Shown: positions 1 to 1,111, counted from the first letter of the stretch. The stretch: 4,823 bases of DNA from a virus (IMGVR_UViG_2695420579_000008); one strand, 5' to 3'. A program made the numbers and translations. Notes: generated by a model not told the origin, from the sequence alone.

Positions 1-137
1 ACACTAAATCAGTAAGTTGGCAGCATCACCGAAGTGGTAAAGAAGATAATAAAGAATAATATTTAGGGTTATAGGTCTTAGCCCATTTTAAATGGAAGGC
101 AGACATGCAGCCATGCATACTTCGCATGGCAACATAA

Positions 138-479
138 TTATTTAGACAAACTATCTAATTTTTGCGTCGCTTTTTGTGTTAGGTCGCTGTAACTGATAAA
201 CCCTACGTTAGCACCTACAATTAACACTAAGAACACTAAGCTGCATATGGATAGAGTGGCAGATTTATGCTTATGGAAAACAAAATATGCTACTATTGCA
301 CTTAATATGAAGGAAATGAATAGAAATATAGATGTTGATGTTTTTAGATATTTTTCAGGAAATAATGGGTGAGCAATAATGTATACAAGATTAAGTAGTA
401 TATAAATTGCTACCGGAATGAAAATCATGCTCCAGTGTGTATCTTTTTTGGGAGGGATTGGCTGCAAATAATCAGACAC
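138..479 (-). CDS. Hypothetical small integral membrane protein (113 aa, three predicted TM helices); unknown function
   Basis: ORF from the six-frame track. Translation shows three hydrophobic stretches of about 20-25 residues (IFIPVAIYILLNLVYIIAHPLF; IFLFISFILSAIVAYFVF; LSICSLVFLVLIVGANVGFI) separated by short charged/polar linkers. The first codon is GTG (477-479) with only a weak GGA upstream; an alternative ATG start lies at codon 18. AT-rich composition unlike the neighbouring phage operon. No family recognised. Confidence 0.45.
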   Translation of the reverse strand: MSDYLQPIPPKKDTHWSMIFIPVAIYILLNLVYIIAHPLFPEKYLKTSTSIFLFISFILSAIVAYFVFHKHKSATLSICSLVFLVLIVGANVGFISYSDLTQKATQKLDSLSK

Positions 480-561
480 CGTTTTTCCATCAGTTTCAAG
501 AAGAATTACTAGATCTCTTACTTCACCACTGACTTGAGTGCATCCTTAGTAGTAATGTTAA

Positions 562-939
562 TCATTTTTTCCCTCCAAATACGATGCCCTCTACGTCTTT
601 GGAAGCTTTTTGTGATGACCACTCCTCTGAATCAGGTGATTTAATTAAAAATATTGTATCTCCATCAAAAATCGTATTTGTTCCGTAAAAATTCACATTT
701 GATAGATCACCACCAAAAACCCTCTGCCCACTCGAGGTAATTGCCTCACCTAATTTAGTAAAATTACCAGCAATAGATGATTTTCTTTTTCCACTTCTAT
801 TCAAAGTGGCTTTAATTACACCACCACCATCCTTAGAGTTAAATAATTGAATGTCCACTCCAGCAGTTGGTTGTATATATTTTGAAAGCTCTTTCTTGAA
901 CTTGTTAATATATTTATCTTTGTTTTCTTTGTTGGTCAT
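562..939 (-). CDS. Hypothetical protein (125 aa), Lys-rich N-terminus, Gly/Ser-rich body, no TM segment or signal peptide; unknown function
   Basis: ORF from the six-frame track, ATG start at 937-939 with a weak upstream purine tract. It lies 82 bp upstream of, and on the same strand as, the 138..479 ORF, so the two could be co-transcribed. AT-rich. No family recognised from memory. Confidence 0.45.
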   Translation of the reverse strand: MTNKENKDKYINKFKKELSKYIQPTAGVDIQLFNSKDGGGVIKATLNRSGKRKSSIAGNFTKLGEAITSSGQRVFGGDLSNVNFYGTNTIFDGDTIFLIKSPDSEEWSSQKASKDVEGIVFGGKK

Positions 940-1111
940 TGGTTAGATCCATAGTTCTGGCTGTGATTAGGTGAAAGTATACAAGGTTTTTAAAGCGAAG
1001 ATCACTGTTTTGGCTTCAAGATAGTTTTGATTTATCGTAATCAATCCGCCATAATCCTCTCATCGGAGCCTGAACAACTCCGGTGACTTCTGCGCATTTA
1101 AGGGGACTTAA

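Follow-up and report, generated by a model that had tools for sequence, protein, structure and literature searches.

The left end of the viral fragment IMGVR_UViG_2695420579_000008 (4,823 nt, the whole of which we call the window) carries a cassette of two minus-strand genes, here named geneA and geneB, and comparison with related genomes indicates that the two are a decayed copy of a tightly coupled module that is widespread and uncharacterised. In the best-supported reading, the cassette would be a moron (concept in PMC3594210), a self-contained transcription unit lying in a lambdoid prophage with the replication genes on one side and the nin genes on the other. As for what the module does where it is whole, we favor a lysogen-expressed conflict module acting at the membrane, of abortive-infection or toxin-antitoxin type, to which we assign a probability of roughly 45%. 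The cassette comprises the following features.

562–939, minus strand: geneA, intact, 125 aa, protein identical to Escherichia coli WP_000182282.
138–566, minus strand: geneB, pseudogene frameshifted relative to the intact 429-bp gene (WP_000608370), whose intact form encodes 142 aa.
976–981, minus strand: −10-like hexamer TATACT, candidate cassette promoter, 36 nt upstream of the geneA ATG, at a conserved position.
110–130, minus strand: GC-rich hairpin (GCCATGC, 7 nt, GCATGGC) with a conserved stem, starting 7 nt past the geneB stop.

Both minus-strand open reading frames (ORFs) reported in a preliminary description of this DNA, at 562–939 and 138–479, are present. The second one, a 113-aa ORF that had been taken for a gene, is instead the downstream remnant of the 142-aa geneB after a one-nucleotide deletion, and the 82-bp spacing described between the tandem genes is a by-product of the same deletion, as the intact geneB ATG overlaps the geneA stop by 4 nt. 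A single C is missing between plus-strand positions 540 and 541, where relatives read GTGCCATCC and the window reads GTGCATCC. The frameshift falls at codon 9 of geneB, and the reading frame that opens at the native ATG accordingly ends after 15 codons, leaving only a 15-aa peptide in the window. All 46 complete E. coli genomes that bear the cassette (A7, BH100N, 536, and 43 others) have geneB intact at 429 bp and 142 aa, while about 100 Shigella sonnei contigs have the exact 113-aa truncated product in their annotation. Given these two observations, an assembly error was ruled out, and the frameshift is a real mutation that became fixed in the S. sonnei lineage, from which the window very likely comes. 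Given that geneB is frameshifted at codon 9 and that the prophage is an IS1-bounded remnant, the module in this window is very likely inactive, a decay that the preliminary description had overlooked. In S. sonnei the membrane gene is broken and geneA is unchanged, a pattern that fits a role of the geneB protein as the effector of the pair, albeit as a single event in a pseudogene-rich genome.

Strong purifying selection acts on both genes (dN/dS, the ratio of nonsynonymous to synonymous substitution rates, of 0.08–0.13 for geneA and geneB, and of 0.09–0.12 for geneA against the Klebsiella and Enterobacter copies), which argues that they are real genes where intact. The idea of a soluble protein paired with a membrane protein, put forward in the preliminary description, agrees with our predictions of a cytoplasmic geneA product and a three-helix geneB product. 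The geneA protein is predicted to be hydrophilic and without a signal peptide. An exhaustive profile search gathered 111 clusters in its family, nearly all of them stand-alone proteins of 120–135 aa, and close relatives of both proteins were restricted to Enterobacteriaceae. Its conserved positions (Y10, L22, G39, F84, G86-T87-N88, I99-K100, W107, and D115) form a pattern that does not look catalytic. The AlphaFold2 model of the geneA protein, built on 9 close sequences, had the order helix-strand-strand-helix-strand-strand-helix and was weak, with a predicted local distance difference test (pLDDT) score of 58.

The intact geneB product consists of an N-terminal mini-domain of about 44 aa and three transmembrane helices, and its AlphaFold2 model (pLDDT 74) begins with a short beta-hairpin and a helix, after which come three long helices. 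For 20 family members, hydropathy together with the positive-inside rule predicted an N-in/C-out topology, so that the conserved mini-domain and a conserved basic loop (H/Q-x-R/K-F/H-K) would share the cytoplasm with the geneA protein. The helices had no conserved charged residues inside. A class I holin, a type with three transmembrane segments, was considered for the geneB protein and rejected: it had no holin match in Pfam or PHROGs, its predicted N-in/C-out topology is opposed to the N-out/C-in topology that such a holin requires, and its gene is not in the lysis cassette, being distant from essD-rrrD.

The conservation of the pair extends well beyond enterobacteria. Four distant geneA homologues came from a protein collection, and a degenerate DNA motif scan over one genome per species yielded 27 loci, 17 of which were verified by hidden Markov model and 10 of which were chance matches. 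These 17 homologues span Pseudomonadota, Nitrospirota, Bacteroidota, Verrucomicrobiota, Cyanobacteria, Acidobacteriota, and Desulfobacterota, and in every one a geneB-like gene lies directly downstream, with a 4-nt overlap in 14. A geneB-like partner also lies directly downstream of geneA at loci L011, L015, L018, and L053/L054, as well as in every enterobacterial copy. The partners share an N-terminal motif (M-K-I-G-x-V-E-G-T-P-E-E-I...G-L...Y...P), three hydrophobic helices, and the basic loop. No recurrent third gene was found near the pair. Taken across these genomes, the pair is, to judge by its linkage, an ancient conserved unit. There were two departures from this arrangement: in Microbulbifer (L014), the partner of geneA is a coiled-coil protein with one transmembrane segment (1-TM), and in the metagenomic protein P0104 (447 aa, L051:246-1589, on a 1.7-kb contig), a single chain joins the geneA domain to an HNH endonuclease and an unassigned C-terminal region. 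The HNH fusion and the 1-TM coiled-coil partner suggest that the geneA domain may act as a sensor or adaptor that accepts different effectors.

The pair is carried by several kinds of mobile element. It occurs in prophages (L004–L010 and L015/16), lambdoid ones among them, one distant copy lies in a prophage-like element with integrase, lysozyme, and holin genes, and another lies on an island with resolvases. The closest non-enterobacterial pair (42% identity) sits on a ColE2-type mobilisable plasmid (L053:3-1745), directly after a rep gene that encodes Replicase and PriCT_1 domains and whose end is overlapped by the geneA start by 11 nt; the same layout recurs at L054 and L055. Several distant copies have defense-type neighbors. 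In a Deltaproteobacteria metagenome-assembled genome (L030), the BREX genes brxA-brxB (2883–4147) start 112 nt downstream of the pair; at L021 the pair adjoins Mrr_N and the PADLOC candidate PDC-M49A; at L018 it adjoins hsdM, of type I restriction-modification (R-M), and an HNH/methyltransferase pair; and at two unrelated loci (L014:5888-6637 and L019:4695-5729), proteins with the TIR-like DUF4062 domain are encoded immediately beside the module. Additionally, an Xre-MbcA/ParS antitoxin gene lies near the pair at L011. Defense-type neighbors were found within 4.5 kb in about 5 of the 20 distant loci, a raw count on which an enrichment of the pair near defense genes is suggestive, not proven.

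In the window, the composition of the cassette sets it apart from the surrounding prophage. GC content in 200-nt windows was 0.31–0.38 up to about position 1000 and 0.49–0.60 over 1200–2500, and averaged 0.347 for 60–1021 against 0.501 for the nin block (1204–3077), so the left 1 kb is indeed AT-rich relative to that block, as the preliminary description had noted. The extent of 1–1100 that was given there for the cassette needed trimming: the AT-rich insert exists, but it runs from just after the replication gene P (position 60) to about 1021, and the remainder is IS1, P, and lambdoid DNA. The right limit was placed at about 1021 because 1022–1100 is conserved lambdoid promoter-region DNA, and only this stretch matches isolated lambdoid phages, in 22 records that are without the cassette (82–91% identity). 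The feature that marks this border is the following.

1027–1087, plus strand: lambdoid promoter-like element (TTGATT, 17 nt, CATAAT) with an inverted repeat, upstream of ylcH-ybcN, forming the right border of the insert.

A promoter scan returned a match at 1027–1055, and in the phage 82 record X92588 the stretch is annotated with putative −35 and −10 elements and a repeat described as a "possible regulator-binding site" before orf33 (ylcH) and orf151 (ybcN). The two ORFs had also been described as opposite in orientation to the plus-strand nin operon and about 170 bp from it; we found 172 nt between the geneA start and the ylcH homologue.

The slot that the insert occupies, with the replication genes to its left and the ylcH-ybcN promoter element to its right, carries cargo that differs among lambdoid phages. 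K-12 DLP12 carries emrE-ylcJ-ybcK-ybcL-ybcM at this same location, in line with the ybcL and ybcM that the preliminary description placed upstream of ylcH. The slot contains ybcK-ybcL-ybcM in PhiR34_1, ren-like, eae-like, and holE-like genes in HK639, an opposite-strand BD-FAE alpha/beta hydrolase gene in phage Lambda_4C10 (L049:2181-3224), and, in an Enterobacteriaceae prophage (L010:3665-5348), pore-forming colicin-like and colicin-immunity-like genes beside the geneA-geneB pair. This variety upholds the view of the preliminary description that the locus is a replaced, recurrent variable slot. Prophages of Klebsiella and Enterobacter, whose replication and nin modules differ considerably, likewise carry the pair between the two, on the opposite strand. 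The cassette has the deviant composition of a moron (GC 0.347 against 0.501), and the genes on either side of it adjoin each other or enclose other cargo in related phages, with homology of the flank resuming at about 1022.

Predicted signals at the two ends of the cassette would suit a transcription unit of its own. A TATA[CG]T box is found 35–40 nt upstream of the geneA ATG across cassettes whose synonymous sites are saturated, and in Klebsiella and Enterobacter it reads TATAGT with an extended −10 TG. The TATACT box of the window failed a 9/12 consensus scan because its −35 element is weak. Past the geneB stop, the stem of the hairpin at 110–130 is kept in the Klebsiella and Enterobacter cassettes despite the saturation of coding DNA at synonymous sites, and the minus strand of 60–140 folds at −23.2 kcal/mol (z = −3.1). 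This hairpin, which is without a U-tract, is a candidate transcript end or stabiliser. On the plus strand, at 66–96, a terminator-like hairpin with a T-rich tail lies directly 3′ of the stop codon of P and is followed by a second, small palindrome (CCATTTTAAATGG); these two hairpins face the hairpin of geneB. The position of the terminator-like hairpin is presumably comparable to that of lambda tR2.

Neither protein belongs to a known family, in agreement with the preliminary description. The geneA and geneB proteins had no match in Pfam, NCBIfam, or PADLOC and matched only PHROGs of no known function. Scans of Pfam, NCBIfam, PADLOC, and PHROGs for the wider families of both proteins gave only such PHROGs without an assigned function and spurious hydrophobic matches, and profile searches of the Protein Data Bank (PDB) returned nothing credible. 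A known defense system, one of the possibilities raised earlier, was not recovered: PADLOC-DB v2.0.0 matched neither protein, with no match for geneA or 68 members of its family and none for geneB beyond E = 0.17. Structure prediction, which the preliminary description had proposed, gave models of both proteins (pLDDT 58 and 74), but the fold searches made with them were uninformative. A search of the literature by accession, locus tag, and peptide motifs in the supplements of large defense screens returned nothing, with Brenes & Laub (2025), on E. coli prophage defenses, lying outside its coverage. Membership in RexAB was rejected given that there was no PADLOC or Pfam match to RexA or RexB, and membership in the type II toxin-antitoxin systems was rejected given that no HTH, RHH, AbrB, or other Pfam domain was found in either protein or in 68 and 20 members of their respective families.

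In the conflict module that we favor, the lysogen would express the pair from a promoter belonging to the cassette, at a time when the rightward early promoter is under repression. Once the prophage is induced, antiterminated transcripts running rightward across the pair in antisense would silence it, sparing the lytic growth of the prophage itself. The geneA protein would bind the geneB protein and gate it via the N-terminal domain of the latter, an idea suggested by the tight coupling of the genes, the matching compartments of their products, and the non-catalytic look of the geneA protein. A trigger, for example a second phage infecting the cell or the element being lost, would then lead the geneB protein to damage or depolarise the membrane. 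Here, we infer the expression pattern, the binding of the two proteins, the toxicity of geneB, and any anti-phage effect; what the compared genomes show directly is how the cassette is built, that the pair is conserved and mobile, and where it occurs. Support for a conflict role comes from context and may be summarised as pairing across phyla, carriage by mobile elements, and defense neighbors. A wider version of this proposal, which we hold only tentatively and consider somewhat doubtful, is that the pair represents a new family directed against phages or mobile elements in many phyla, in which a cytoplasmic sensor would gate a three-helix effector via the mini-domain, with effector-swapping variants represented by the HNH fusion and the 1-TM coiled-coil partner; lambdoid prophages, ColE2-type plasmids, and defense islands would be its carriers.

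Several points weigh against the conflict module. The proteins are without homology to known defense, toxin-antitoxin, holin, or exclusion proteins in PADLOC v2, Pfam, NCBIfam, and the PDB. Neither protein had a tblastn match among 50,697 isolated phage genomes, nor did the nearest geneA homologue from outside the enterobacteria among 72,556 plasmids. Housekeeping genes surround many of the distant copies, and only about a quarter have a recognisable defense neighbor. The promoter is a prediction with a weak −35 element, the hairpin has no U-tract, and the structure models are weak, particularly that of geneA, with fold searches that did not inform. Given that its helices are without conserved charged residues, the geneB protein may be a mere membrane anchor and not a pore, and the lone S. 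sonnei frameshift could be neutral decay.

The pair could instead be a pure addiction (toxin-antitoxin) module, in which geneB would encode a membrane toxin and geneA its antidote, stabilising the prophage or plasmid that carries them without any anti-phage action. The order of the genes, with a putative antidote upstream and a putative toxin downstream, and their translational coupling resemble type II toxin-antitoxin operons, the plasmid copy directly after rep occupies a classic place for stability genes, S. sonnei lost the putative toxin and kept the putative antidote, and the antitoxin gene near the L011 pair points the same way. However, neither a DNA-binding domain suited to autoregulation nor a disordered, protease-labile region is recognisable in the geneA protein, both partners are equally conserved, and many copies lie in chromosomes without a visible mobile element. 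We regard pure addiction as unlikely, and it overlaps heavily with the conflict module, as many toxin-antitoxin pairs also abort phage infection. An accessory role outside conflict, such as membrane homeostasis or stress, carried around by mobile elements, or no function at all in this genome, seems to us more unlikely still. It would agree with the housekeeping genes that make up most neighbors of distant copies (those for a tRNA synthetase, PlsX, ThiC, and CoaX), with the absence of any match to a defense model, and with the state of the window copy, a pseudogene in an IS1-bounded remnant. Set against it are the patchy distribution of the pair (46 of 5,426 complete E. coli genomes), its foreign GC content, and its carriage by prophages and a plasmid along with repeated BREX, R-M, and TIR-like neighbors, all of them typical of conflict systems and not of core physiology, and also the strong purifying selection on intact genes. 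To a superinfection-exclusion complex at the inner membrane, which would block phage genome entry without killing the cell, as P22 SieA and T4 Imm do, we give the slimmest chance of these explanations. Small prophage membrane proteins are documented in that role (PMC10883804, PMC11436027), and a predicted inner-membrane protein with a cytoplasmic partner, a position and orientation typical of lysogen-expressed prophage genes, and helices without pore-like polar residues, which fits an anchor or blocker, would all suit it. Such proteins are, however, usually specific to a phage and host group, whereas this pair spans Cyanobacteria to Bacteroidota and occurs outside prophages, on a plasmid and in housekeeping surroundings, and neither SieA, SieB, Imm, nor any other exclusion family in Pfam resembles it.

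Among characterised systems, the conflict module would work most like RexAB and other pairs of a cytoplasmic and a membrane protein encoded by prophages. Lambda RexA and RexB likewise form a two-gene, lysogen-expressed prophage module (expression being predicted in our case) with one cytoplasmic and one small polytopic inner-membrane protein, RexB is about as long as the geneB protein (~144 and 142 aa), and the genes are transcribed against the early lytic operon. In contrast, there is no sequence similarity, the geneA protein is much shorter than RexA (125 against ~279 aa), and the pair lies in the slot between the replication and nin genes, whereas Rex lies in the immunity region. RexB has four helices, and three are predicted for geneB. 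Mycobacteriophage Butters, as Mageeney and colleagues reportedly described in 2020, also uses a prophage-encoded cytoplasmic protein and a membrane protein, gp30 and gp31, against heterotypic phages; the Butters pair differs in belonging to an unrelated host phylum, so that no homology is expected, and in having four predicted helices in its membrane protein. The lambdoid morons bor, lom, and nmpC/ompD resemble the cassette as independent units of deviant GC content placed between conserved phage genes and against the flanking operon, but they are single outer-membrane proteins or lipoproteins with known roles, whereas geneA and geneB encode a coupled cytoplasmic and inner-membrane pair that also occurs outside phages. 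Type II toxin-antitoxin systems are likewise pairs of small genes, coupled in translation and found on plasmids, prophages, and islands, and a downstream gene inactivated in a decaying copy is a further likeness; they differ in that the pair has neither an antitoxin domain that binds DNA nor a toxin of known fold, and a three-helix membrane toxin would be unusual among them.

For this window, the message is modest: the prophage remnant, of the S. sonnei lineage and bounded by IS1, holds a decayed copy. If the pair is a defense or addiction module, a compact system of about 0.8 kb without described domains would join the known repertoire, and the slot between the replication and nin genes would be a cargo hotspot worth mining, like the P2 and P4 hotspots. 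Its breadth would then be notable, with 111 clusters and at least seven phyla sampled, in prophages, plasmids, and defense islands. The intact copy in E. coli 536 (NC_008253.1, 1199512–1200314) makes the idea directly testable.

The remainder of the window places the cassette in a degraded prophage. Comparison with relatives indicates that the 4,823 nt are a remnant of a DLP12-like lambdoid prophage lying between two IS1 ends, with the following features besides those already listed.

1–30, strand not assigned: IS1 terminal end forming the left boundary of the window, a high-copy repeat.
31–59, plus strand: last 29 nt of the lambdoid replication gene P, with its TAA stop at 57–59, from alignment to E. 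coli A7 and BH100N.
1112–1207, plus strand: homologue of ylcH/orf33, 31 aa, first gene of the plus-strand nin block, identified by homology.
1204–1659, plus strand: ybcN, followed by ninE, ybcO, rusA, ylcG, and quuD.
3266–4348, minus strand: intact porin gene of the nmpC/ompD type, 3′ of quuD, from its ORF and an annotation match.

The repeat at 1–30 occurs at 56,567 places in E. coli genomes, with a median of 9 per genome, and on plasmids too, and we take it to match the IS1 inverted repeat. In strain CV839-06, an annotated IS1A adjoins the same cassette. The right end of the window (about 4793–4823) is likewise a high-copy repeat that lies under annotated IS1A elements. The IS1 termini at 1–30 and 4793–4823 share the same orientation and, both ends being IS1 termini, the prophage fragment is IS1-bounded. 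Homology with the cassette-bearing E. coli genomes begins at 30/31, and in A7 and BH100N an annotated "replication protein P" ends at the equivalent of position 59. As the alignments place it, the left IS1 has replaced all upstream DNA, including nearly all of gene P, and the window is, on this evidence, a prophage remnant without its replication genes.

The product of 1112–1207 has 64–80% identity to K-12 YlcH, phage 82 orf33, and a BH100N ORF, and the gene order ylcH-ybcN-ninE-ybcO-rusA-ylcG-quuD, followed by an opposite-strand porin gene, matches A7, BH100N, and K-12. Very AT-rich DNA upstream of the porin gene contains 95 N, masked or unassembled, at 4598–4692. The porin gene itself (3266–4348, GC 0.44) is a second opposite-strand moron in the window, and its K-12 copy is interrupted by IS5.

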